24,000 bases of DNA from Sporomusa sp. KB1 (GTDB lineage: Bacteria > Bacillota > Negativicutes > Sporomusales > Sporomusaceae). The translations under genes were made by a program, and so were the position numbers. The notes beneath the pieces were generated by a model, which was not told the DNA's origin, searched no databases, and was given only the letters and a program-made list of their open reading frames with translations. The DNA is taken from positions 3,889,546-3,913,545 of the forward strand of contig NZ_VLKC01000002.1 of the NCBI RefSeq assembly GCF_007830295.1, read 5' to 3'. Below, in pieces: positions 6,069 through 23,138 of this stretch (its first letter is position 1; every line of letters begins with the position of its first letter).

Positions 6069-7313
6069 ATGGAGAAATTTATCGTCAAAGGAGAAGTACA
6101 ACTAAGTGGCAACGTCCGGATAAGCGGGGCGAAAAATGCTACTTTGCCAATTATGGCAGCAACGCTTCTGTGTTCTGGTATCAGTGTTATCCATGATGTT
6201 CCGTATTTGCGCGATATCCAAGCCATGCAGGATATTTTGATATTGCTTGGCGCTAAGATACGCAGGCAAGGTCATACCATGCTAATCGATACCAGCAATG
6301 TGAGTAAAGTTGAAATACCTGAACATTTGATGCGGGAAATGCGTGCTTCAGTTTTTTTGATGGGGCCGCTTTTGGGAAGATTTCGCAAAGTCAGACTGTC
6401 CTATCCAGGTGGTTGTGCTATCGGTCCTAGGCCAATTAATCTACATATCAAGGCATTAGAGAAAATCGGTGCAATTGTTGATGAAAGTTTTGGTTTTATT
6501 GATGCTGAGGCGAAAGAGTTAACCGGCGGTGAAATAAATTTTGATTTTCCCAGTGTTGGTGCTACAGAAAATGCGATGATGGCGGCCGCGCTGGCCAAAG
6601 GTACTACGATTATCCGCAATGCAGCGCGTGAACCTGAAATTGTTGATCTGCAGGCTATCTTAAATAAAATGGGAGCAAGAATCAATGGTGCAGGCACTGA
6701 TACGATTAGAGTTGATGGCGTAGCCCGGCTGGTTCCGGCAGAACATACAGTAATGTGTGATAGAATTGAGGCTGGTACTTTTTTAACCGCAGGCGTTATG
6801 ACACGTGGTGATATTGTAGTTGAGAATGTCGTTCCTGAATATTTATTCTCAGTTACTGATAAACTGCAGGATATTGGGGCGAAAATAATAACTGGTAAGG
6901 ATTATATCAGGATAAAGGCAGGCGAAGTCAGGGGTGTAGATATAAAGACGCTGCCATATCCTGGATTTCCTACCGATTTGCAAGCACCGATGTTGTCATT
7001 GGTTACCATTGCTAAAGGTACTAGCATTATCACGGAAACTATTTTTGAAAATCGGTTTAAGCATGTTGATGAGCTTACCCGGATGGGAGCTAAAATTAAG
7101 GTTGAAGGACGAACCGCTATTATTCGCGGGGTGGCGAAATTGACTGGCGCCATTGTGGCTGCCCCTGATTTGCGGGCTGGCAGTGCGCTGGTATTAGCCG
7201 CTTTAGCAGCAGAAGGAACCTCAGAAATTGAGCAGGTATATCATATTGAGCGTGGTTATGAAAATTTAGATAAAAAATTGCAAGCATTAGGAGCAAATAT
7301 TGTAAAGGTGTAA
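6069..7313 (+). CDS. murA: UDP-N-acetylglucosamine 1-carboxyvinyltransferase MurA
   Basis: RBS GGGAGGG. Motifs ISGAKNA and the active-site loop PGGCAIGPRPINLH are present, with EPSP-synthase-like repeats and a C-terminal DLRAGSALVLAAL...IERGYE. Confidence 0.95.
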   Translation: MEKFIVKGEVQLSGNVRISGAKNATLPIMAATLLCSGISVIHDVPYLRDIQAMQDILILLGAKIRRQGHTMLIDTSNVSKVEIPEHLMREMRASVFLMGPLLGRFRKVRLSYPGGCAIGPRPINLHIKALEKIGAIVDESFGFIDAEAKELTGGEINFDFPSVGATENAMMAAALAKGTTIIRNAAREPEIVDLQAILNKMGARINGAGTDTIRVDGVARLVPAEHTVMCDRIEAGTFLTAGVMTRGDIVVENVVPEYLFSVTDKLQDIGAKIITGKDYIRIKAGEVRGVDIKTLPYPGFPTDLQAPMLSLVTIAKGTSIITETIFENRFKHVDELTRMGAKIKVEGRTAIIRGVAKLTGAIVAAPDLRAGSALVLAALAAEGTSEIEQVYHIERGYENLDKKLQALGANIVKV

Positions 7314-12799: not shown

Positions 12800-13732
12800 G
12801 TGAGCATTTATGCTGATGTGGTATTGTTAATCAATTTTATTATGAATAGCATTATTTTAGTAATAACAGCTTATGCTGCAGGCATTTCTTTTTGTTGGAA
12901 ACGCTTGTTAATGACGGCTGTAGCGGGAGGCGTATATACATTAGTCGGTATCTTTCCGGAGATGGCTATATTTTATAGTATACCCGGAAAGTTTTTAGCG
13001 TCTGTGGTGATTATTTTATTGGCTTTTGGCTATAGGTCAGTAAAGCTGACAGTAACACTTACCGGCATTTTTTTTATAGTATCTTTTATTTTGGGTGGGG
13101 CTTTGTTGGGCTGGATGTATTTTATTCAAACGGAAGCGCCTTATAGAGCTGGTACTACTATTAAACTCTCCTGGGGCAATTTAATGGCAGGCAGTGTCTT
13201 AGCCATAGTTCTCATCCTGCTGGTTGTCAAAAGACTGCTGGCCAGAATGTACCGGTATAAGACTTTTTATCAGGCAAGAATAGAATATGCCGGGCAGTTG
13301 CAGGAGATTACAGGTATGATGGATACTGGCAATGGCCTCTATTCGTTGCTGGGGCGTAAACCGGTAGTTCTGCTTTCTCTGCAATCGGCACTTCAACTAC
13401 TGGGCCGGCAGGTTGCAGCATTCTTAACAGCTAATCGGCCGGATTCCTGGTTAGCTAATCTTGACAAATGTCAGGATTCAGCTTGGCTAGCCAGGGTGGA
13501 GGTTATTCCCTGCCAGTCTGTTGGGGGCCGCAATATGTTGCTTGGTTTTAGACCGGATAGTATTACCGTGATGAGCAATGTGGGCTCGTACTATACTTCA
13601 GAAGTACTTATCGGCATTTACGATGGTACCTTTGCTGATGGTAGCAATTGTCAGGCGCTTTTACATCCGGCGCTTATAACAGAAATTAATAGGACCAAGG
13701 GGGAAAGTACATGCGAATTACCTGGCCAATAA
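12800..13732 (+). CDS. spoIIGA: Sigma-E processing aspartic peptidase SpoIIGA
   Basis: GTG start with RBS AGAAGG. N-terminus [16 protein letters not shown] resembles B. subtilis SpoIIGA, and about five TM segments follow. The catalytic DTGN motif is present ([11 protein letters not shown]). The gene lies directly upstream of sigE. Confidence 0.9.
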
Positions 13733-14448
13733 TTAAATTGTATATAAGGCTAAGGATCATATCACTACTTCAGGCGATTGGCTGGCTGAAGCCTGATGAA
13801 GTATTTTATGTTGGTAGCGCGGAAATTTTACCGCCACCTTTATCAAGTGATGAAGAGATATTTTTGCTTAACCGTTTGCAAAAAGGGGATAAATCTGTCA
13901 GAAGTGTATTCATTGAGCGTAACCTCCGGCTTGTCGTCTACATTGCCCGCAAATTTGAAAATACCGGCGTAAGTGTCGAAGATTTAGTTAGCATCGGTAC
14001 GATTGGCCTAATTAAAGCAGTAAACACGTTTGATCCCGTCAAAAAGATTAAACTAGCCACATATGCTTCACGATGTATCGAAAATGAAATTTTAATGTAT
14101 TTACGCCGTAACAGTAAAACCCGGGCCGAAGTATCCTTTGACGAACCATTAAATATTGATTGGGATGGTAATGAGCTGTTGCTTTCTGATGTGTTAGGTA
14201 CAGATAATGATATTATTTATAAGTCAGTGGAGGAAGAGGTTGATAAAACCCTGTTATACACAGCCATGAGCAAGTTGTCAGGGCGGGAACGAAGAATTAT
14301 GGAACTACGGTTTGGCCTTAATGATGACGGTAATGAACGTACACAAAAAGAAGTAGCTGATATGCTGGGGATATCTCAGTCGTACATATCAAGGCTGGAA
14401 AAGAGAATAATAAAGAGGCTGCGTAAAGAGATTAGTCGCATGGAATGA
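13711..14448 (+). CDS. sigE: RNA polymerase sporulation sigma factor pro-sigma-E
   Basis: Near-identical blocks to B. subtilis SigE: [64 protein letters not shown] and [21 protein letters not shown]. An N-terminal pro-sequence is present. RBS GGGGGA. The start overlaps the spoIIGA end by 22 nt. Confidence 0.96.
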
Positions 14449-14470
14449 AGTCTTGCGGCTCTTTTTTTTT
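14434..14470 (+). terminator. Possible terminator or attenuator after sigE
   Basis: AGTCGCA (14434-14440) pairs with TGCGGCT (14454-14460), including one G-U pair, across a 13-nt loop. The run CTTTTTTTTT follows. The stem overlaps the sigE stop codon. Confidence 0.5.
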
Positions 14471-14512
14471 GCCTATTTTTGAAAAATGTCAGGCATCTCT
14501 TTGGCAGCAGAA

Positions 14513-14542
14513 GTATAAAACCAGCAGGCCATGGCAATAATG
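14513..14542 (+). promoter_or_regulatory. Forespore sigma-F/sigma-G-type promoter upstream of sigG
   Basis: GTATA (14513-14517), a 15-nt spacer, then GGCAATAATG (14533-14542). This fits the published sigma-F consensus GywTA-N15-GgnrAnAnTw at all but the last position. It lies about 58 nt upstream of the sigG ATG. Confidence 0.6.
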
Positions 14543-14599
14543 CTTGTGTAGGGTAGTTAAGTTGTTTTAGTAGCTTAGAAAAACTGGGGAGGGAATAAC

Positions 14600-15373
14600 A
14601 TGATTGTCAACAAAGTCGAAATATGTGGTGTAAATACAGCGAAGCTCCCGGTGCTTTCTGCCACTAAAATGCGTGAGTTGTTTGAGGTAATGCAGGGGGG
14701 CGAAAAAGGCGCCCGGGAACAGCTGATTTATAGCAATCTCCGATTAGTGCTTAGTGTAATTCAACGGTTTAATAATCGGGGAGAATATGTCGATGACTTA
14801 TTTCAGGTTGGCTGCATTGGCTTAATGAAAGCTATTGATAACTTTGATCTGGCACAGAATGTAAAGTTTTCTACCTATGCAGTACCGATGATTATTGGAG
14901 AAATCCGGCGCTATTTAAGAGATAACAACCCCATAAGGGTAAGCCGTTCAATGCGGGATGTTGCCTATAAAGCGCTGCAAGTACGGGATTCGTTAGTCAG
15001 TCGGTTTTCACGGGAGCCGTCAATTAATGAGATTGCTGATGAACTTAAGGTGCCAAGAGAAGAAATAATATTTGCCCTGGACGCAATCCAAGAGCCTATA
15101 TCCTTATTTGAACCTATTTATCATGATGGCGGTGATCCCATTTTTGTAATGGATCAAATCAGTGATGATAAACATTTAGATTTAAGTTGGCTTGAGGGAG
15201 TGGCAATTAAAGAAGCTCTGCGCAAACTGAGTGACCGCGAGAAACATATACTTACTCTTAGGTTCTTTGAGGGTAAAACGCAGATGGAAGTTGCAGATGA
15301 AATTGGTATTTCCCAGGCACAAGTGTCGCGGTTGGAAAAGGCCGCATTAGGCCATATGCGCAAATACATATAG
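14600..15373 (+). CDS. sigG: RNA polymerase sporulation sigma factor sigma-G
   Basis: Long near-identical blocks to B. subtilis SigG: NKVEICGV, NLRLVLSVIQRFNNRGEYVDDLFQVGCIGLMK, VKFSTYAVPMIIGEIRRYLRDNNPIRVSRS and KTQMEVADEIGISQAQVSRLEKAA. Confidence 0.96.
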   Translation: MIVNKVEICGVNTAKLPVLSATKMRELFEVMQGGEKGAREQLIYSNLRLVLSVIQRFNNRGEYVDDLFQVGCIGLMKAIDNFDLAQNVKFSTYAVPMIIGEIRRYLRDNNPIRVSRSMRDVAYKALQVRDSLVSRFSREPSINEIADELKVPREEIIFALDAIQEPISLFEPIYHDGGDPIFVMDQISDDKHLDLSWLEGVAIKEALRKLSDREKHILTLRFFEGKTQMEVADEIGISQAQVSRLEKAALGHMRKYI

Positions 15374-15402
15374 AGTTTATGATTTACTTGGGAGGCAGTG
15401 TA

Positions 15403-16011
15403 ATGGAGAGAAGTTTACCTTTGTGGAGTAAGCGAATGTTAATAATTCTAGTAGTTTGTTTTATTGCTGGTGGCTGGAGTGTACTTCTTTATCAGCAAAA
15501 ACACGGGGTACCAGTGACACCCAATAGCAGTGATTATGTTAGATTGCATATTTTGGCTAATAGCGATAGCGTACAAGACCAACAGCTTAAACTAAAGGTT
15601 CGCGATGCAGTAATTGCCTATCTAACCCCATATGTCAAAGATGTGACTGATGCCCAAGCAGCTAAAAACATTATAGCTAACCGCCAAGAGGAACTTGTTC
15701 TGGTAGCCAAAAACACGCTAGCCGAAAACGGCGTTGATTATCCTGTAGCTATCCAAATCGGTAGTTTTGAGTTTCCGGTGCGTTCCTACGGCAGCTTAGT
15801 GTTGCCTGCGGGAGAGTATCAGGCTGTTCGCATTCTCCTGGGAGAGGCTGCTGGGCAAAATTGGTGGTGCGTATTATTTCCACCCCTATGTTTTATTGAC
15901 GGTACTAACACGACCTTAGCCCCAGTTACTTCTTCAAAAGAATATACTCAGCAGGAAGATGGCGATAGACCTTTAAAAATTTGCTGGAAGCTGGCTGAGA
16001 TTTTTAATTAA
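15403..16011 (+). CDS. spoIIR: Stage II sporulation protein R (SpoIIR), the forespore signal that activates SpoIIGA
   Basis: Conserved SpoIIR blocks VRLHILANSDSVQDQQLKLKVRDAV and NWWCVLFPPLCF, with an N-terminal signal/TM segment. I prefer the ATG at 15403 (RBS GGGAGG 7 nt upstream) to the ORF-track ATG at 15379. Confidence 0.9.
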   Translation: MERSLPLWSKRMLIILVVCFIAGGWSVLLYQQKHGVPVTPNSSDYVRLHILANSDSVQDQQLKLKVRDAVIAYLTPYVKDVTDAQAAKNIIANRQEELVLVAKNTLAENGVDYPVAIQIGSFEFPVRSYGSLVLPAGEYQAVRILLGEAAGQNWWCVLFPPLCFIDGTNTTLAPVTSSKEYTQQEDGDRPLKICWKLAEIFN

Positions 16012-16034: not shown

Positions 16035-16074
16035 ACAGCCTCAGCTCTGCGAAATGCAGAGTTGAGACTGTTTT
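16035..16074. terminator. Bidirectional terminator between the convergent spoIIR and 556-aa genes
   Basis: 16-bp stem ACAGCCTCAGCTCTGC / GCAGAGTTGAGACTGT (two G-U pairs), loop GAAAT. An A run (16029-16034) flanks the 5' side and TTTT the 3' side. Confidence 0.8.
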
Positions 16075-16151: not shown

Positions 16152-17822
16152 TTATACTTCGACAACGCGCCTGATATTGCTGTGTGCTACAACGCTTTCT
16201 TCTACTGAATAAGTAGGAATTGCAGCACTGGCCATCTGTTGGATGGTAAGGGGAATGTTGGTTTTGGACAAAAACACTAACCGTTTGTCGTAATAGCGAA
16301 TTAGTTTGATCATCTTATAAAAACAGTCATGGCTGAATTTGCAGCGAACATTGGCAAAAATAATATCAGCATGGATGATAAGCGCTTCATCAAAGCCGTT
16401 TGCATCGCCGGAGAGATAAACAAAATTAGGTAGCTGGGTCTTTAACTTGGTTTGCCAATTTTCAGCACCGCCGATAACCAAGGCGTGAATGTTGCTTAAT
16501 GTGCTTAATGCTGCCTCGATATTGTAGTGTTGATTAGATGTTGCTAAATTTATAATATTATTAGAGTTTTCTATGTCTTTACTTTGTCTTCGGTGATTTT
16601 CCGCTTGCGTAAGCTTAGTTTGAAGTAGCTCAGTTTCTTTGCTTAAGGCATTCACCACGAACTTTTGTTTGAGAACCAAGGCGTTAAGCTCTTCTTCTTT
16701 TTGAGCCAGCAAATCGGTTTTGGCTGCCAAATCTGCACTCATCCTGCGAACTTCTATTTCGTAGGCTCGAAGTTGTTTTTTGAGATTATCCATTTCGGCA
16801 GATAGAAAAGGATTGTTTTGTTCAAAATAATATTTCCTCGTTTTTTTATACTCACGTATGAATTCGAGTAAACTTAAGCCGAACATTACAAACTCGGCAC
16901 ATTTTGATTCCAGATCCTCGTGGCTTTGCGTATGATTGGATCGGAATAATTCTGAGGTCATCTTTATAATATAGAGGCGACAAAGTAGCTCAACATCTCG
17001 TTCTTTAATCTTTGTCAAAATTTTTGGTGATGCCAAGGATAATCCTGTTGATGATGACAAATACGCGGTGCAGTGAGCCATTCCTTCCCAGAAATGGTCG
17101 CCGTTCCAGGGTTCAAGATAATTATAAAATACCTTTTGATATATCGCATTTTTAAGTTGACGGGCCATTTTTTTTATTGCTGGTTTATTCAGCCTGTTTT
17201 TTAATTGTTGAAAATCGCTGGTGTTATCAAGCTTGCTGGCAAGTGTTTGCACAACGAATAAAGTCTCAGGTTCTGGTATGATTGCTTTTTTGCCTAAAAC
17301 ACAGGTAATAAACATGGCGAATTTTAGGGAGGCATGAGGCGGTAAATCAATAGCTGGATACATTGCAATGAAATATTGAAGATATTGTATTGCGGCGCCA
17401 GTAAGAAGATTGTGGTATTGAACGTCTTTGTCGGATTCGGCATAATACTCTGGCTGAGCGGCTTTTGATAAATCAATTGTTTCGGCATTTTTAATATAGC
17501 CATACAGATTGCTCCAGCGTTTTGTCAGAATGCGTATTACCTGTTCGAATAAGGGAGAACAAGGGCCATCTTCCATAGCCACAAGCACCATGCCTAAGTA
17601 TTTTAAGGCATAAATTTGTCGATCAATGCCGCTGATAGTGAACAAAGGATGATTAGCATAAGAAGAATGAGAGGCTGCAGTCTGGTAACGAGTTTTATCG
17701 ATTTCATAAAGCAAGTCTATTTCTTTGTATGCTGATGATGTATCGGCAGCGAGCTGGACAAAAAGAGGGAGCGTATCAACCGGGATATTGTTGGCTACTA
17801 ATATGAAATCCGAAATCTTCAT
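16152..17822 (-). CDS. Hypothetical 556-aa protein: novel helical N-terminal region, central coiled coil, DUF2325-like C-terminal domain
   Basis: Long uninterrupted ORF with RBS GGATGGTGA upstream. Residues ~341-412 are heptad-rich (EMDNLKKQLRAYEIEVRR...ELLQTKLTQAENH). Residues ~446-530 (ALVIGGAENW...HADIIFANVRCKFSHDCFYKMIKL...LVFLSKTN) match my memory of the DUF2325 pattern (GG ... aD-hh ... sH ... k). No TM segment or signal peptide. Confidence 0.7.
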   Translation of the reverse strand: MKISDFILVANNIPVDTLPLFVQLAADTSSAYKEIDLLYEIDKTRYQTAASHSSYANHPLFTISGIDRQIYALKYLGMVLVAMEDGPCSPLFEQVIRILTKRWSNLYGYIKNAETIDLSKAAQPEYYAESDKDVQYHNLLTGAAIQYLQYFIAMYPAIDLPPHASLKFAMFITCVLGKKAIIPEPETLFVVQTLASKLDNTSDFQQLKNRLNKPAIKKMARQLKNAIYQKVFYNYLEPWNGDHFWEGMAHCTAYLSSSTGLSLASPKILTKIKERDVELLCRLYIIKMTSELFRSNHTQSHEDLESKCAEFVMFGLSLLEFIREYKKTRKYYFEQNNPFLSAEMDNLKKQLRAYEIEVRRMSADLAAKTDLLAQKEEELNALVLKQKFVVNALSKETELLQTKLTQAENHRRQSKDIENSNNIINLATSNQHYNIEAALSTLSNIHALVIGGAENWQTKLKTQLPNFVYLSGDANGFDEALIIHADIIFANVRCKFSHDCFYKMIKLIRYYDKRLVFLSKTNIPLTIQQMASAAIPTYSVEESVVAHSNIRRVVEV

Positions 17823-17870
17823 GCGGTATCACCATCCTTTTTGTATTAAAAATAAAACGATCTATTCTCT

Positions 17871-18230
17871 TTACACTACTTTTTTGGTAATACATTCGAC
17901 ACTTTCTATTTGGTAAGACGCGGCAATAGTCGTGCTTCGTTCGCCTTTGGCTGTCTGTATTGCCGCTTTGACTGCAAGCAGAGACTCCGTAATATTTTTT
18001 AGGTTGTTTGTTAACGTTACAAGGATATTAACATAGGTATCAAATGTATAGTCGTTCTTAGACAAGGTAGCTTCTTGAATGGCTTTATGGGTATCTACAA
18101 GGAGTTCTTGAAAGGCATGTTCAGAGTATTGTAAGTCAGTTAGTGTATAGCAACCGGGTTCATTGTCGGTTAGTAACATAATCTTCCCATTGGTTAAAAC
18201 ATCACTGTGATCATTGATTCGTGAATACAT
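17871..18230 (-). CDS. Hypothetical 119-aa protein, first gene of the operon with the 556-aa gene
   Basis: ORF with a strong RBS (AGGGAGGAAAAATT-ATG). It lies 48 nt upstream of the 556-aa gene on the same strand. No recognisable motif, TM segment or signal peptide. Confidence 0.6.
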   Translation of the reverse strand: MYSRINDHSDVLTNGKIMLLTDNEPGCYTLTDLQYSEHAFQELLVDTHKAIQEATLSKNDYTFDTYVNILVTLTNNLKNITESLLAVKAAIQTAKGERSTTIAASYQIESVECITKKVV

Positions 18231-18281: not shown

Positions 18282-18326
18282 AAACGAAAATATGCCAAGC
18301 CTATCCAGAACGGAAAGGGCTTGGCA
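18282..18326 (-). terminator. Leader terminator (attenuator) inside the 5' UTR of the 119-aa gene
   Basis: Read on the minus strand, UGCCAAGCC-N16-GGCUUGGCA forms a 9-bp stem followed by AUAUUUUCGUUU. It sits about 60 nt upstream of the ATG at 18230. Confidence 0.7.
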
Positions 18327-18392
18327 ATAAATTCAAGCGAACGTAATAAAAGAACATAAAACAAGTGTAAAACTTTGCACTGCTTGAAATAT

Positions 18393-18487
18393 TGCTCCTT
18401 TCCAAAAGGGAGATATAGCCGTTTTCAGCTATACCGATCGGCCGGATACCATGCCACGAAAGGATTAGGTAAATCGGCTAAGGAGCA
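18393..18487 (-). promoter_or_regulatory. Candidate riboswitch aptamer; class unproven, some resemblance to the Moco/Tuco RNA motif
   Basis: On the minus strand an 8-bp closing helix, UGCUCCUU (18487-18480) / AAGGAGCA (18400-18393), encloses about 80 nt. Internal hairpins are GCCG..UACC / GGUA..CGGC (18478-18441) and UAUAGC-UGAAAACG-GCUAUA (18433-18414). The 3' strand also pairs with the terminator's 5' arm. Confidence 0.5.
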
Positions 18488-18567
18488 GACTATCTGATTA
18501 TGAAACTTTAACAAAGAGGTATTCGATAACGAAAACTAACATAAACAAACATGAATAATTAATTACT

Positions 18568-18596
18568 ATTATATTGTTTGGCGGTGTATAAATCAA
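18568..18596 (-). promoter_or_regulatory. Sigma-A-type promoter for the riboswitch-like leader and the 119/556-aa operon
   Basis: On the minus strand: TTGATT (18596-18591), a 17-nt spacer, then TATAAT (18573-18568). Confidence 0.6.
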
Positions 18597-18753: not shown

Positions 18754-19743
18754 ATGAATCGTAATTTAATGAAACTAATGGGTCTTTTTCTCTGCGTAGT
18801 ACTCATTGGACTGGGGCAACAAAGCAGTTTTGCCGAGGAGAGCCCAAACCACCCAATTACGGAGGTTATTGTCTTTCATGCTGGCAGTTTAAGCGGACCA
18901 TTCCAGAAAGCGGCCGAAGCTTATGAAAAATCTCATCCAGATATCAAAATCACTTTAGAAGGAAGTGGCAGCCGGGAAGCCGCCCGGAAAGTAACGGAAC
19001 TGAAGAGACCATGTGACGTGGTTGCTTCTGCTGACTATGAAACTATTGATAATTTAATGATGCCTGAATATGCAAAGTTTAATATATTTTTCGCCCGTAA
19101 TAAAACAGTTGTAGCCTTTACCGACAAAAGTAAGTATGCTAATGAGATTACCAGTGATAATTGGTATGATATTTTATCAAGGCCAGATGTGCAGTATGGT
19201 CATACTGATCCGAATTTGGATCCTGGCGGCTACCGGGCAGTTCTGACATTGCAGTTAGCCGAAAAATATTATCATAAACAGGGCTTGTATCAAGCGCTGG
19301 TAAATAATTTTCATGAGTCTAACACTGTCAATGATGGAAAAAGTATCAAAGAAATGCTGAATTCAGGTCGGTTGGATTACTTCTTCTTTTATGAATCGTC
19401 AGCCAAACAAGGCGGCTATCACTATATTACCTTGCCGGTTGAACTCGATTTTTCTTCCTTGGATTATGCGAACTATTACAAGCAAGCAACACTGTCGCTT
19501 AATGGCAAAAAAACAGGCAGCACTGAACAAGTTTACGGACAACCAATAATTTATGGCCTTACTCTGGTGAATAACGCCCCACATTCCAAGGAAGCGCTGC
19601 AATTCATACACTTTCTTCTGACAGATGGACAAAAATATTTAAATGATGCAGGTTTTATTTCTATGAATCCGTTAGTTCGCACCAGGGAATTGCCTTACAT
19701 CCCGGCAGAATTAAAAGATTTAGTAAAGCCGTTCAAACAATAA
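18754..19743 (+). CDS. Periplasmic tungstate/molybdate-binding protein, WtpA/ModA superfamily (orphan; no adjacent permease or ATPase)
   Basis: RBS AAGGGGG. Sec signal peptide (MNRNLMKLMGLFLCVVLIGLGQQSSFA). VFHAGSL...GSGS...VVASADY parallels the ModA blocks VFAAASL...SSG...FISAD. The HTDPNLDPGGYR block resembles the WtpA-type oxyanion-binding motif, recalled from memory. Confidence 0.82.
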   Translation: MNRNLMKLMGLFLCVVLIGLGQQSSFAEESPNHPITEVIVFHAGSLSGPFQKAAEAYEKSHPDIKITLEGSGSREAARKVTELKRPCDVVASADYETIDNLMMPEYAKFNIFFARNKTVVAFTDKSKYANEITSDNWYDILSRPDVQYGHTDPNLDPGGYRAVLTLQLAEKYYHKQGLYQALVNNFHESNTVNDGKSIKEMLNSGRLDYFFFYESSAKQGGYHYITLPVELDFSSLDYANYYKQATLSLNGKKTGSTEQVYGQPIIYGLTLVNNAPHSKEALQFIHFLLTDGQKYLNDAGFISMNPLVRTRELPYIPAELKDLVKPFKQ

Positions 19744-20611: not shown

Positions 20612-20821
20612 ATGACTCAAACCAATCAAATTATCCTGAGAATTGAAGGTATGTCATGCAGTATGTGCAAAGGTAAAGTGGAAAAAGCACTTAAAAGTAT
20701 TTCAGGAGTAATAAACGTAAGTGTTGATTTGGAAACAAAGGAAGCCATTATTGGTGGCTTGGCTAATCCTGCAGCGCTTGTTAAAGCTGTTGAAGAAATT
20801 GGATTTAAAGTTAAAAACTAA
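20612..20821 (+). CDS. Heavy-metal-associated (HMA) domain protein, CopZ-like metallochaperone
   Basis: 69 aa with a ferredoxin-like HMA pattern and metal-binding loop GMSCSMC (MxCxxC). No signal peptide. I prefer the ATG at 20612 (RBS AGGGAGG 11 nt upstream) to the GTG at 20603. Confidence 0.85.
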   Translation: MTQTNQIILRIEGMSCSMCKGKVEKALKSISGVINVSVDLETKEAIIGGLANPAALVKAVEEIGFKVKN

Positions 20822-20861
20822 TATGCTTCACCACTTAGCACTATTCAAGAGGAGGGGGAAA

Positions 20862-23138
20862 ATGGCGAAAAACTTAACATGGAAACCATTTTGCAGTGTT
20901 ACACTTGCTATTGCCATGTTTCTATATGGAGCAGGTATTGCCGGGGCGGAAAATGCAGTGTCGCAATCAGACAGCACTCAGGTGTCCGAAGGTGATAAAC
21001 AGCAAAAACAGGATCAGGCAGCTGATAAGCAAGAACAGCACGAAAATAGTGATAGTTCGATTGCGGCGACTTCAACTGCGGCCAATGTTCCATTTACTGA
21101 GGTGGAGATTACTGCGGTGGAGGTTACTGCGGACAAGCAGAATAAACTGGCTATTGGCCAGCAACCCAACGCCGAAGGGATAAATAATTATGTAGTTACG
21201 AAAAGTTCTACCGGCAGTAAATCAGACGTTGCAAATAAGGATTTGCCGCAGTCGATTACGGTGGTCGGCCAAAAAATCATGAAGGAGCAAAATAATAAAA
21301 CAGTCGCCGATGCATTAACTAATGTGGCGGGGGTAACGGTAGCCCAAGCAGTTCCTAATTATTGGTACAACACAAGTTTTAATATCCGAGGTTTTGGTAA
21401 TGGTTTTTTGTCTGACAATGTATTTGTTAATGGGTTATGGGATCCGTGTATTTCAATGTCGGGATGGGTGGGAAATCTTGACCGTATCGAGGTATTAAAA
21501 GGTCCGGCCTCTGTACTGTACGGAAATGGTACGCCTGGAGGTTCAATCAACTATGTAACAAAAAAACCGTTGTCTGAACAGGCATTTACCTTGGGCACGG
21601 AGTTCGGCTCATGGGGATCCAAATCGACTGATATTGATATGTCCATTCCGCTAACTGATGATAAAAAATGGCTGTCCCGGACTATTATTCAGAATGCTGA
21701 TAATCATTCTTTTCAAAAGGACGTTAAATTCAAACGTTTCGACGGCAGCGTAATTGTGCAAGGCCAACCCCGGCAAGATACTGTGTACACTTTTGAAGTA
21801 CAGTTTCATGATCACGATGGTCCAACTGTTGGATTGCTGCCACTTACCGGTACAATAAATTCCCCCTATAATCTAGTTCCTTACGATGGGAATTATTATA
21901 ATCCAAATATAAAATTACATTATATAGGGCGCAGTATTTCGGCACAAATCGATCACCAGTTTAATAGTATTTGGTCCATCCGTTCGGCCTTCCGATATAG
22001 CAATGAAACCACAAATTTCTATTCGCAAGGAGGGTCGACTCTGAATCTCGATAATCTTACAGTCAATCAAGTTTGGCAGCATAGACTGATGCGCACCAGC
22101 GTTTATGCGTGGGATACGGCAGCAAATGCCAAATTTACTGCTTGGGGGCTTAAACACGATTTGACATTTGGTTTTGACTGGGCCCAATTTGATCAAAAAA
22201 TCCCCTATTATTATCGGGGCAATTTACCCAGCGTTTCGTTGTACAATCCTATTTTCACCAGCTCATTACCAACGAGGATTATGAATCCAATGAATAACTA
22301 TCATTCTTGGAGCAATCGATATGGGAGCTACATATCGGACATAATGGAACTTTCGCCCAAATTTAAGGTTGCTACAGGGGCAAGCTTTACCACTTTGGAT
22401 GGTGTCAGCAGCCATGATTCTGGCAAAGATTGGCGGGTCGGGGCGACCTATGAATTAACTCCAGGAGTTACCTTATTTACCGGCTACTCCACATCCTACG
22501 AACCACAAGGCTCTAAGCTTAGTGGTACTAAAACGATTTACTTTGAACCTGAAACCGGTAATCAGATCGAGGGCGGTTTGAAGGTAGATATAAGTAATCG
22601 CGCAAGTGTTACGTTAGCAAATTACCGGATCAATCGTGAAGATATGGTCTACGCTATTCCCGGAACGAACCCGCAAGAATATGAACAAATTGGCAAGCAA
22701 ACCAGCAAAGGGTTCGAACTTGATGCTAGCTACGTACTTCGTCCAGGCTGGAATCTGCTGGTCGCTTATTCTCATTGTGACGCTCGCGTAGTAAAAGACG
22801 CTACCTATAGTTCAGGCAGCGTGCTTCCCAATGTGCCGCTTAACTCCTTTAAACTTTGGAGTACATACGAATTTCAAGAAGGGCCTTGTAAAGGGCTGGG
22901 TTTTGGCGGCGGTTTGACTCGTGTCGGCAGCCGCGCAGTCGATTATGATAATAGCTTAGGTTGGATGGATGGCTATACTACGATTGACGCCGAAATACAT
23001 TACAAAATCAAAGATTGGCGTTACTCCCTCAACCTATATAATTTGACTAATGAGAAGTATTGGGCGTTAGGCAGTTCTAGTGGTGTTTACGCGGGAACAC
23101 CTAGAAGTTATACTTTGCGCGTAGAAAAGTCATTTTAA
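20862..23138 (+). CDS. TonB-dependent outer-membrane receptor (siderophore/metallophore-receptor type)
   Basis: RBS GAGGAGGGGG then ATG at 20862. Signal peptide (...AIAMFLYGAGIAGA-ENA). Plug-domain motifs TKSSTGSKSDVANKDLPQSITVV, NVAGVTV, IRGF, IEVLKGPASVLYG and PGGSINYVTKKP. A beta-barrel-like repeat region follows, with the terminal aromatic ...YTLRVEKSF. The ORF-track start at 20721 overlaps the HMA gene and lacks an RBS. Confidence 0.9.
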   Translation: MAKNLTWKPFCSVTLAIAMFLYGAGIAGAENAVSQSDSTQVSEGDKQQKQDQAADKQEQHENSDSSIAATSTAANVPFTEVEITAVEVTADKQNKLAIGQQPNAEGINNYVVTKSSTGSKSDVANKDLPQSITVVGQKIMKEQNNKTVADALTNVAGVTVAQAVPNYWYNTSFNIRGFGNGFLSDNVFVNGLWDPCISMSGWVGNLDRIEVLKGPASVLYGNGTPGGSINYVTKKPLSEQAFTLGTEFGSWGSKSTDIDMSIPLTDDKKWLSRTIIQNADNHSFQKDVKFKRFDGSVIVQGQPRQDTVYTFEVQFHDHDGPTVGLLPLTGTINSPYNLVPYDGNYYNPNIKLHYIGRSISAQIDHQFNSIWSIRSAFRYSNETTNFYSQGGSTLNLDNLTVNQVWQHRLMRTSVYAWDTAANAKFTAWGLKHDLTFGFDWAQFDQKIPYYYRGNLPSVSLYNPIFTSSLPTRIMNPMNNYHSWSNRYGSYISDIMELSPKFKVATGASFTTLDGVSSHDSGKDWRVGATYELTPGVTLFTGYSTSYEPQGSKLSGTKTIYFEPETGNQIEGGLKVDISNRASVTLANYRINREDMVYAIPGTNPQEYEQIGKQTSKGFELDASYVLRPGWNLLVAYSHCDARVVKDATYSSGSVLPNVPLNSFKLWSTYEFQEGPCKGLGFGGGLTRVGSRAVDYDNSLGWMDGYTTIDAEIHYKIKDWRYSLNLYNLTNEKYWALGSSSGVYAGTPRSYTLRVEKSF
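21102..21131 (+). repeat. Tandem 15-bp duplication inside the receptor gene, encoding VEITA-VEVTA
   Basis: GTGGAGATTACTGCG (21102-21116) is followed directly by GTGGAGGTTACTGCG (21117-21131), with one mismatch. Confidence 0.8.

Follow-up and report, generated by a model that had tools for sequence, protein, structure and literature searches.

The two-gene operon described here, which encodes proteins of 119 and 556 amino acids (aa) in Sporomusa sp. KB1, was shown by comparative analysis to be a conserved unit behind a riboswitch and, as judged from the class of that riboswitch, to belong to the regulon of the molybdenum and tungsten cofactors (Moco and Tuco, respectively) in the Sporomusaceae. 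The operon lies within a stretch of 24,000 nucleotides (nt) from contig NZ_VLKC01000002.1 (positions 3,889,546 to 3,913,545 of the forward strand), which is referred to as the window and is numbered from its first letter. Induction of the operon when the cofactor is scarce, and a role in tungsten/molybdenum (W/Mo) homeostasis, are probable from the sequence and from analogy with a characterized switch. Our tentative proposal, held with rather less than even confidence, is that the pair is an unrecognised component of W/Mo-cofactor homeostasis in acetogenic Negativicutes, which is made under Tuco/Moco scarcity and either binds or routes tungstate, molybdate or a pterin cofactor or switches on uptake. 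In acetogenic Sporomusa, CO2 fixation and electrosynthesis depend on W/Mo enzymes, namely formate dehydrogenases and aldehyde oxidoreductases. Furthermore, genes without an assigned function located behind riboswitches have repeatedly led to new transporters or enzymes, with the riboswitch naming the relevant metabolite. If the two proteins store, chaperone or regulate W/Mo or the cofactor, a gap in the tungsten management of anaerobes would be filled.

Operon layout and riboswitch leader

The locus was shown, from its predicted signals, to be organized as one transcription unit, in which a promoter and a P3-less Moco-class riboswitch are followed by a pair of terminator-like hairpins, by the genes of the 119-aa and 556-aa proteins, in that order, and by a terminator. 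The features are as follows, in the direction of transcription.

18568 to 18596, minus strand: putative sigma-70-like promoter of the operon (TTGATT, 17 nt, TATAAT; consensus scan, 10/12 match)
18379 to 18497, minus strand: Moco RNA motif riboswitch aptamer (RF01055), P3-less subclass (cmscan, 52.6 bits, E = 3.6e-10)
18358 to 18386, minus strand: leader hairpin 1 (CAAGCAGUG...CACUUG) followed by UUUU (minimum free energy, MFE, fold)
18282 to 18326, minus strand: leader hairpin 2 (UGCCAAGCC...GGCUUGGCA) with a U-rich tail, a terminator-like expression platform (MFE folds)
17871 to 18230, minus strand: 119-aa open reading frame (ORF), ATG start
16152 to 17822, minus strand: 556-aa ORF, ATG start
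16040 to 16066, both strands: hairpin terminator common to the operon and the convergent spoIIR (12-bp stem, 6 G-C pairs)

An earlier reading of this DNA, made without database searches (the sequence-only reading), had described two ORFs 48 nt apart with strong ribosome-binding sites (RBSs), and these were recovered on the minus strand; the Shine-Dalgarno-like sequences AGGGAGG (18244-18238) and AAGGATGGTGA (17839-17829) precede the 119-aa and 556-aa ORFs, respectively. Its description of a bracketing promoter/leader and a bidirectional terminator was likewise confirmed. The putative sigma-70-like promoter, for which we infer activity at 18596-18568, is located about 70 nt upstream of the aptamer, the leader carries the riboswitch, and the G+C-rich hairpin between the operon and spoIIR has T-runs on either strand.

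In the Rfam scan of the whole window, RF01055 was the single match; it is located between the promoter and the small gene, spans the full-length model (positions 1-135) and exceeds the gathering score of 36 bits. The P3 positions of the model are deleted in the window aptamer in the cmscan alignment, and P3 is missing in all 12 aligned aptamers (the window and 11 others), all of which keep the multi-stem fold, a GAAA tetraloop and the GGAAAGGAG core; 30 consensus pairs are predicted. Assignment to RF01055 is based on the score, the conserved core and a candidate expression platform, and assignment to the P3-less subclass on the absence of P3. Moco RNAs have been divided into forms with and without P3, the latter of which are associated almost exclusively with organisms or genes of Tuco metabolism (Regulski et al., 2008, PMC2408646). 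By virtue of its subclass, the window aptamer is proposed to be a Tuco sensor.

The long structured leader and the ligand-dependent control suggested by the sequence-only reading both acquire a concrete form here: the whole leader folds much better than shuffled sequence (MFE z = -4.25), and it was identified as an RF01055, or Moco/Tuco-class, riboswitch conserved with the genes. Both leader hairpins, each with a U-run, are located between the aptamer and the RBS. Hairpin 1, a possible first terminator, is kept in 14 loci, with pairs changed on both sides (G-C to A-U) in four sequences. The sequence of hairpin 2 is near-invariant over 14 loci, and its CCUUUCC is complementary to an invariant GGAAAGG of the aptamer, from which we infer an antiterminator pairing. 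A shared operator-like motif, which had also been suggested, was not borne out: the 8-mer TTGCCAAG from the conserved leader hairpin has two matches in the window against 1.41 expected, which is not above chance, although the test is loose and the motif may have been defined differently in the earlier reading.

In the leader of S. silvacetica (L008, about 6390-6590), an insertion of ~160 nt is present downstream of hairpin 2 and upstream of the RBS, and a direct repeat of ~45 nt (CCAGATGGAAAGTA...CTTTCCCTGGATTGAACGACTAAGGCTT) occurs twice within it; the insertion is absent from the other species (alignment A5).

Conservation and genomic setting of the cassette

Twelve loci of the large protein were obtained in a scan of representative genomes, and more were added through look-ups of exact protein sequences. 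Each of the 15 distinct loci that have upstream DNA carries the aptamer upstream of the large gene, one of the aptamers being degenerate. Rfam aptamers above the gathering score are present in 11 loci other than the window, from Anaeroselena agilis, S. ovata, S. silvacetica, S. malonica, S. acidovorans and six metagenome-assembled genomes (MAGs), and a clade-specific aptamer model built from the aptamers found with Rfam also detects it in two further metagenomic lineages; the loci found with this model include L024/25, L027/29 and L028. The degenerate aptamer is that of S. aerivorans, which scores 40.4 bits with the clade-specific model versus 16 bits with Rfam. In 12 of the 15 loci the small gene separates the platform from the large gene; S. 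malonica, S. aerivorans and the MAG locus L016 are without it.

In S. aerivorans the P2 region of the aptamer (L013 6763-6881) is remodelled with the conserved core kept, and the terminator stem is of a different sequence (AATTGCCGCGC...GCGCGGCAATTTTTT); this may be a decaying or re-specified riboswitch. For the nearest outgroup of the large protein, P0050, the metagenome scan yielded no locus.

The location of the cassette is not fixed. The synteny with spoIIR and sigG seen in the KB1 window is common only to S. ovata and S. silvacetica, and the cassette is found elsewhere in ten other genomes. Since the positions vary while the cassette is kept, the inherited unit consists of the aptamer, the platform and the genes. 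The same distribution bears on a possible function in sporulation. The sporulation cluster that the sequence-only reading had placed alongside the operon is spoIIGA-sigE-sigG-spoIIR (12800-16011, plus strand; Pfam Peptidase_U4, sigma-70 regions and Spore_II_R), and a structural coiled-coil protein acting in forespore development could be imagined from a gene that directly follows spoIIR and the sigE/sigG cluster, is oriented towards them and encodes a long coiled coil of the kind typical of structural proteins. However, the link to the sporulation genes is only positional and is confined to three close species, and the gene is encoded on the opposite strand under a putative, riboswitch-controlled promoter of its own. 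Because the synteny is not conserved, a sporulation role is largely refuted, and we consider it extremely improbable.

The genes that accompany the cassette in the window and in its relatives are as follows, where ABC denotes ATP-binding cassette and SBP denotes substrate-binding protein.

Window, 18754 to 19743, plus strand: WtpA, divergent neighbour outside the operon transcript (TIGR03730, 306.9 bits versus a cut-off of 242.75; SBP_bac_11)
S. ovata and S. silvacetica: the same WtpA, 94% identity
L009 and L012: ModA (TIGR01256, >200 bits)
L011: ModA-like SBP_bac_11 protein
L024/25: two SBP_bac_11 proteins and a permease
Anaeroselena (L001): ABC ATPase, permease, two SBPs, ModE-like regulator and TOBE
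L027: TOBE (Mop) directly downstream, then a formate transporter and formyl-tetrahydrofolate synthetase
S. malonica (L010): TonB, ExbB, ExbD, CobW-like GTPase and ABC ATPase
S. aerivorans (L013): CobW-like GTPase, ABC ATPase and SBP
L001 and L014: DUF364/DUF4213 'heavy-metal chelation' proteins
Window and L015: TonB-dependent receptors

Different Mo/W gene classes thus recur beside a cassette that relocates, which argues for a functional link and is the main argument beyond the riboswitch itself. Of the companions that had been suggested for a check of the homologue neighbourhoods, Mo/W genes and TonB components were found to recur, whereas sporulation genes did so in only the three close species. 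The adjoining metal-uptake module that had been noted in the window does indeed begin with a tungstate-binding WtpA (TIGR03730), and the Rfam scan of the window gave no riboswitch on the short leader of wtpA. This wtpA is solitary, in that neither a permease gene nor an ATPase gene adjoins it; next come a gene for an HxlR-type regulator on the opposite strand and one for an 805-aa TonB-dependent receptor (20721-23138), in which the plug domain starts only from residue ~172, after a long N-terminal extension. The wtpA region and the TonB-dependent receptor may form an outer-membrane uptake route in a diderm Firmicute.

Paralogues were also found. In KB1, the small gene has a solo paralogue (P0040) that is likewise located behind a P3-less Moco aptamer, which provides an independent link of the small protein to the riboswitch class, and a third small paralogue directly follows a PadR gene without an aptamer. 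At the corresponding second locus in a related organism (L024 6556-7830; also L025 and L026), the gene for the large protein is cut after residue ~409; the truncated paralogue has no DUF2325-like domain, and C251 is replaced by Gly. At the second locus of KB1 itself (L002), the large paralogue is gone and the riboswitch and small gene are left. The series of second loci looks like the stepwise decay of a duplicated cassette.

Further riboswitches are present near these loci.

L002, 2772 to 3032, minus strand, and L003, 2810 to 3070: region of a ZTP riboswitch and a second Moco aptamer
L024, 8805 to 8923; L025, 7680 to 7798; L026, 2945 to 3063: recurring second Moco aptamer (Moco scan only)

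In L002 and L003, a ZMP/ZTP riboswitch (RF01750, 50.9 bits) is located ~60 nt upstream of the second Moco aptamer (71.3 bits). In L024, the second Moco aptamer is ~190 nt upstream of a Rex-family gene (Put_DNA-bind_N and CoA_binding), and the small ORFs called between the two appear to be spurious. An acetogen in which tandem riboswitches for folate stress and the Mo/W cofactor precede a redox repressor gene would be unusual. In addition, T-box leaders and a ZTP riboswitch are found within a few kilobases of the cassette in two MAG loci (L009 1548-1808, L011 2733-2998 and L011 10218-10300) and are probably unrelated neighbours.

The encoded proteins

Homologues of the large protein number 33, down to 39% identity, and those of the small protein 13, down to about 28% identity; the 556-aa product is 100% identical to a protein recorded for Sporomusa sp. 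KB1. The ratio of nonsynonymous to synonymous substitution rates (dN/dS; Nei-Gojobori, against three or four Sporomusa species) is 0.11-0.24 for the large gene and 0.06-0.14 for the small gene. Purifying selection together with the homologues indicates that both ORFs are real genes, and the absence of conservation in related genomes that would have spoken against the sequence-only reading was not encountered. Its central description, an uncharacterised and conserved two-gene operon, is upheld: neither protein matches a characterised family and both are under purifying selection. Also in agreement with it, no transmembrane segment was found, the best 19-residue Kyte-Doolittle mean being 1.43 for the large protein and 0.92 for the small protein; with no membrane helix evident, both are predicted to be cytoplasmic.

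The small protein is acidic (pI 5.0), and its named homologues all come from Sporomusa or unclassified Bacillota MAGs. Its AlphaFold2 (AF2) model contains short N-terminal strands and two long helices and, with a predicted local distance difference test score (pLDDT) of only 62.8, is of insufficient quality for interpretation. For the large protein, AF2 gave a mean pLDDT of 71.8, and the model was divided as follows.

Residues 1 to 130: N-terminal domain, modelled with confidence
Residues ~160 to 335: helical region, modelled with less confidence
Residues 337 to 410: coiled coil (~75 residues), modelled as a single long helix
Residues ~435 to 535: alpha/beta domain; four strands, encoded at 16218 to 16520 on the minus strand (AF2, pLDDT about 85)

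The single helix corresponds to the coiled coil that had been read from the sequence at 16587-16802. The strands of the C-terminal domain are at residues 447-450, 468-470, 487-491 and 514-518, and the domain has a conserved motif, IGG...W...FD...H...Y. In the Sporomusaceae clade (alignment A1), C251, C281, C308, H58, H250 and H498 are invariant. Of these, C251, C281, C308 and H250 are clade-specific and absent from the wider family, across which G451, G452, F477 and H498 are invariant.

That neither protein belongs to a recognised family was maintained when profile and structure searches were run. Pfam, NCBIfam and PADLOC gave no significant match for either protein, only weak coiled-coil noise (NET2A, EpsF); PADLOC returned 0 families for both and Pfam no toxin or antitoxin domain. 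Among the models for ModA/WtpA/TupA, ModE, Mop/TOBE, MoaB/MogA, MoeA, MobA/B, XdhC and FdhD, none matched either protein at E <= 1. Sequence searches of the PDB with family profiles (A6 for the large protein, A3 for the small protein) gave only coiled coils, and Foldseek gave no PDB match at E <= 0.001 for the model of either protein. At E values of 0.15-1, which are not significant, the C-terminal domain resembles generic flavodoxin/Rossmann-like folds in the PDB, among them CENP-M, CheY receivers and nucleoside deoxyribosyltransferases.

Relationship to DUF2325 and to phage and plasmid proteins

The sequence-only reading had assigned a C-terminal segment (16233-16487) to a DUF2325-like domain. 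This was sustained only as a remote relationship: AF2 places an alpha/beta domain there and homology can be traced through an intermediate protein, P0177, whereas the DUF2325 model itself (PF10087) misses the window protein at E <= 1, its gathering score of 33.6 bits not being reached. Most scanned members of the clade likewise have no PF10087 match at E <= 1, and P0030 scores 13 bits. The A1 clade profile retrieves 1,181 relatives at E <= 0.001, mostly of 460-520 aa and with the same architecture. Seven of ten relatives tested have a sub-threshold PF10087 match, with scores in the wider family of 17-28 bits, and P0177 (222 aa), retrieved by the A1 profile at E = 2.2e-21, passes PF10087 (34.4 versus 33.6 bits). 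Among the viral structures of BFVD, the best match is to a 'DUF2325 domain-containing protein' of 484 aa (E = 5.7e-15). The C-terminal domain thus appears to be a remote relative of DUF2325 that is linked through intermediate sequences and is predicted to have the same fold and motif. A further homologue search with the mixed alignment A6 returned only the Sporomusaceae clade again.

Residues 311-531 of the large protein match phrog_11092 (profile positions 278-476 of 481) at E = 3.5e-24, and full-length relatives are found in the Clostridium phages c-st and D-1873, phiCD211-like C. difficile phages and large Firmicute plasmids; all of the relatives with a checkable location are on Firmicute phage-plasmids or large plasmids. 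The contexts of these genes are heterogeneous (antirepressor, regulators, transposase, HNH, RusA, integrase and toxin), and neither the contexts nor the cluster names gave a functional clue. The Sporomusaceae large protein looks like a recruited, specialised branch of a phage-plasmid/plasmid family.

This origin raises the alternative that the large protein is a mobile-element remnant that keeps a phage-plasmid function, such as DNA or plasmid maintenance or conflict, its link to the riboswitch being accidental. The phrog_11092 match and the full-length relatives on phages and plasmids are in its favour, as are the annotation of one relative as an insertion sequence (IS) element and a G+C content that is lower at 16-21 kb of the window than upstream. 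However, an accidental link is difficult to reconcile with an aptamer and platform that precede every orthologue, including those of only about 41% identity, at many genomic sites, with the recurrence of WtpA, ModA and Mop alongside the cassette, or with the small protein, which is unrelated and independently under the same riboswitch class. Furthermore, PADLOC found no defence signature, and the gene annotated as an IS is present as a single copy per phage, with no multicopy evidence for an IS. We consider a remnant of this type improbable.

The IS annotation concerns c-st CST013 (L019 3101-4591), for which GenBank gives 'insertion sequence ISCbt2-a, truncated' with coordinates identical to those of the coding sequence. 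It was considered as evidence of transposition and rejected: no transposase family matches, and the name is absent from the literature that was searched. The ISCbt2 annotation looks unsupported.

Proposed function

The preferred reading, a role of the operon in W/Mo-cofactor homeostasis, rests on the riboswitch and the recurring neighbours. Since the Moco RNA of E. coli moaA is an OFF switch (Regulski et al., 2008, PMC2408646), the operon would by analogy be off at abundant cofactor, with bound cofactor favouring the terminator. When Tuco/Moco is low, the GGAAAGG of the aptamer would pair with the CCUUUCC of hairpin 2, read-through would follow and both proteins would be made only under cofactor scarcity. 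The large protein would then form a coiled-coil dimer in which the clade-specific Cys/His helical region and the DUF2325-type alpha/beta pocket bind an oxyanion or pterin cofactor, and it would hold this cargo, or hand it over to the biosynthesis/insertion machinery, during the shortage. The small acidic protein would serve as a dispensable adaptor or modulator. Derived as it is from structural models, this bind-and-hand-over mechanism of a large coiled-coil dimer and a small adaptor is, when taken as a whole, a doubtful one.

Several observations weigh against such a role. Neither protein has an Mo/W-related domain in Pfam or NCBIfam, and the fold matches of the C-terminal domain are generic (E > 0.1). 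Phage relatives outside any Mo/W context have the same pocket residues (GG...H), and the pocket is therefore not specific to W; the middle region that holds the Cys residues has a pLDDT of only 50-70 in the AF2 model. The small partner is absent from three of the 15 loci, which means that the pair is not obligate, and the truncated large paralogue points either to differing domain needs or to a decaying copy. Furthermore, the specificity of P3-less RNAs for Tuco rather than Moco is a proposal that has never been directly demonstrated, and the Moco RNA ligand is unstable (PMC2408646).

Alternatively, the large protein may be a sensor or adaptor, with N-terminal sensing, a coiled-coil transducer and a receiver-like output, that activates the uptake genes (wtpA, modA and the TonB system) under shortage by contacting other proteins or nucleic acids; the small protein would be its antagonist or co-factor. 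In the window, the divergent wtpA and modA genes are without a riboswitch of their own, and the architecture resembles that of signalling proteins, with CheY-type receivers among the PDB matches (3cg0, 3hdg, PleD and RssB), albeit at E values of only 0.3-1, which are not significant. Phage relatives are located beside antirepressors and transcriptional regulators, and one small paralogue directly follows the gene of a PadR regulator. However, no DNA-binding or phosphoacceptor motif was detected in Pfam or NCBIfam, and a single fixed target is unlikely because the neighbours differ among loci. Such a regulator or sensor is, in our opinion, unlikely when considered by itself, yet it is nearly as plausible as the binding and hand-over role.

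If the proposed role in W/Mo-cofactor homeostasis is correct, the operon would give a first function for DUF2325 and for a family of >1,000 mostly mobile-element proteins, and would be a natural reporter for whether P3-less Moco RNAs sense Tuco. If it is not, the locus is a conserved hypothetical operon in one bacterial family.

Comparison with known systems

The riboswitch class is known, and the kind of genes that it controls here has not been reported for that class. In Clostridia, P3-less Moco RNAs are located upstream of genes for molybdopterin synthesis or tungstate transport (Regulski et al., 2008, PMC2408646). The window operon resembles the P3-less RF01055 operons of that study (PMC2408646) in its aptamer family, the lack of P3 and a terminator-type platform, and the cassette is likewise situated among Mo/W transport genes. 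In contrast to known Moco RNA operons such as E. coli moaABCDE, the window genes match no transporter, molybdopterin/Moco biosynthesis or Moco/Tuco enzyme family, and the transport gene of the window, wtpA, is without a riboswitch of its own.

Literature searches on DUF2325 and on Moco riboswitches gave no description of the operon and no function for DUF2325. The DUF2325 protein Cj1384c of Campylobacter jejuni (104 aa) is PerR-regulated, is encoded next to katA and has a suspected redox or metal role (PMC9426514). As in DUF2325 proteins, the alpha/beta fold of the window domain is small, strand 1 leads into a Gly-Gly turn, and strand 3 is followed by a conserved His. Unlike the stand-alone Cj1384c, the window domain constitutes the C-terminal fifth of a 556-aa multidomain protein, and the operon is under a riboswitch rather than PerR.

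Mop/TOBE molbindins, ModE, MogA/MoaB, XdhC-type chaperones and LOG-like Rossmann Moco carriers are cytoplasmic binders of oxyanions or pterin cofactors that are encoded near mod, tup or wtp genes. A functional analogy of the window proteins to these Mo/W-handling proteins is possible; there is no sequence similarity in Pfam or NCBIfam, and none of them is among the top PDB fold matches. To our knowledge, the coiled-coil architecture is without precedent among known Mo/W-handling proteins.

The same full-length architecture is found in phrog_11092 and the phage-plasmid proteins of ~480-500 aa (c-st CST013, D-1873 CLG_B2345 and phiCD211 CEK40542), with which the window protein shares about 20-27% identity, an N-terminal LPF...ID.LY...Y.HP domain, a YK..K.YYF motif, the coiled coil and the alpha/beta domain at the C-terminus. 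What sets the Sporomusaceae clade apart is a ~40-residue insertion, the invariant C251, C281, C308 and H250 and the lack of an EL..LREF motif. Furthermore, whereas the phage and plasmid copies have no Moco aptamer in the five loci scanned, and no Mo/W neighbours, the Sporomusaceae cassette has both a riboswitch and Mo/W neighbours.

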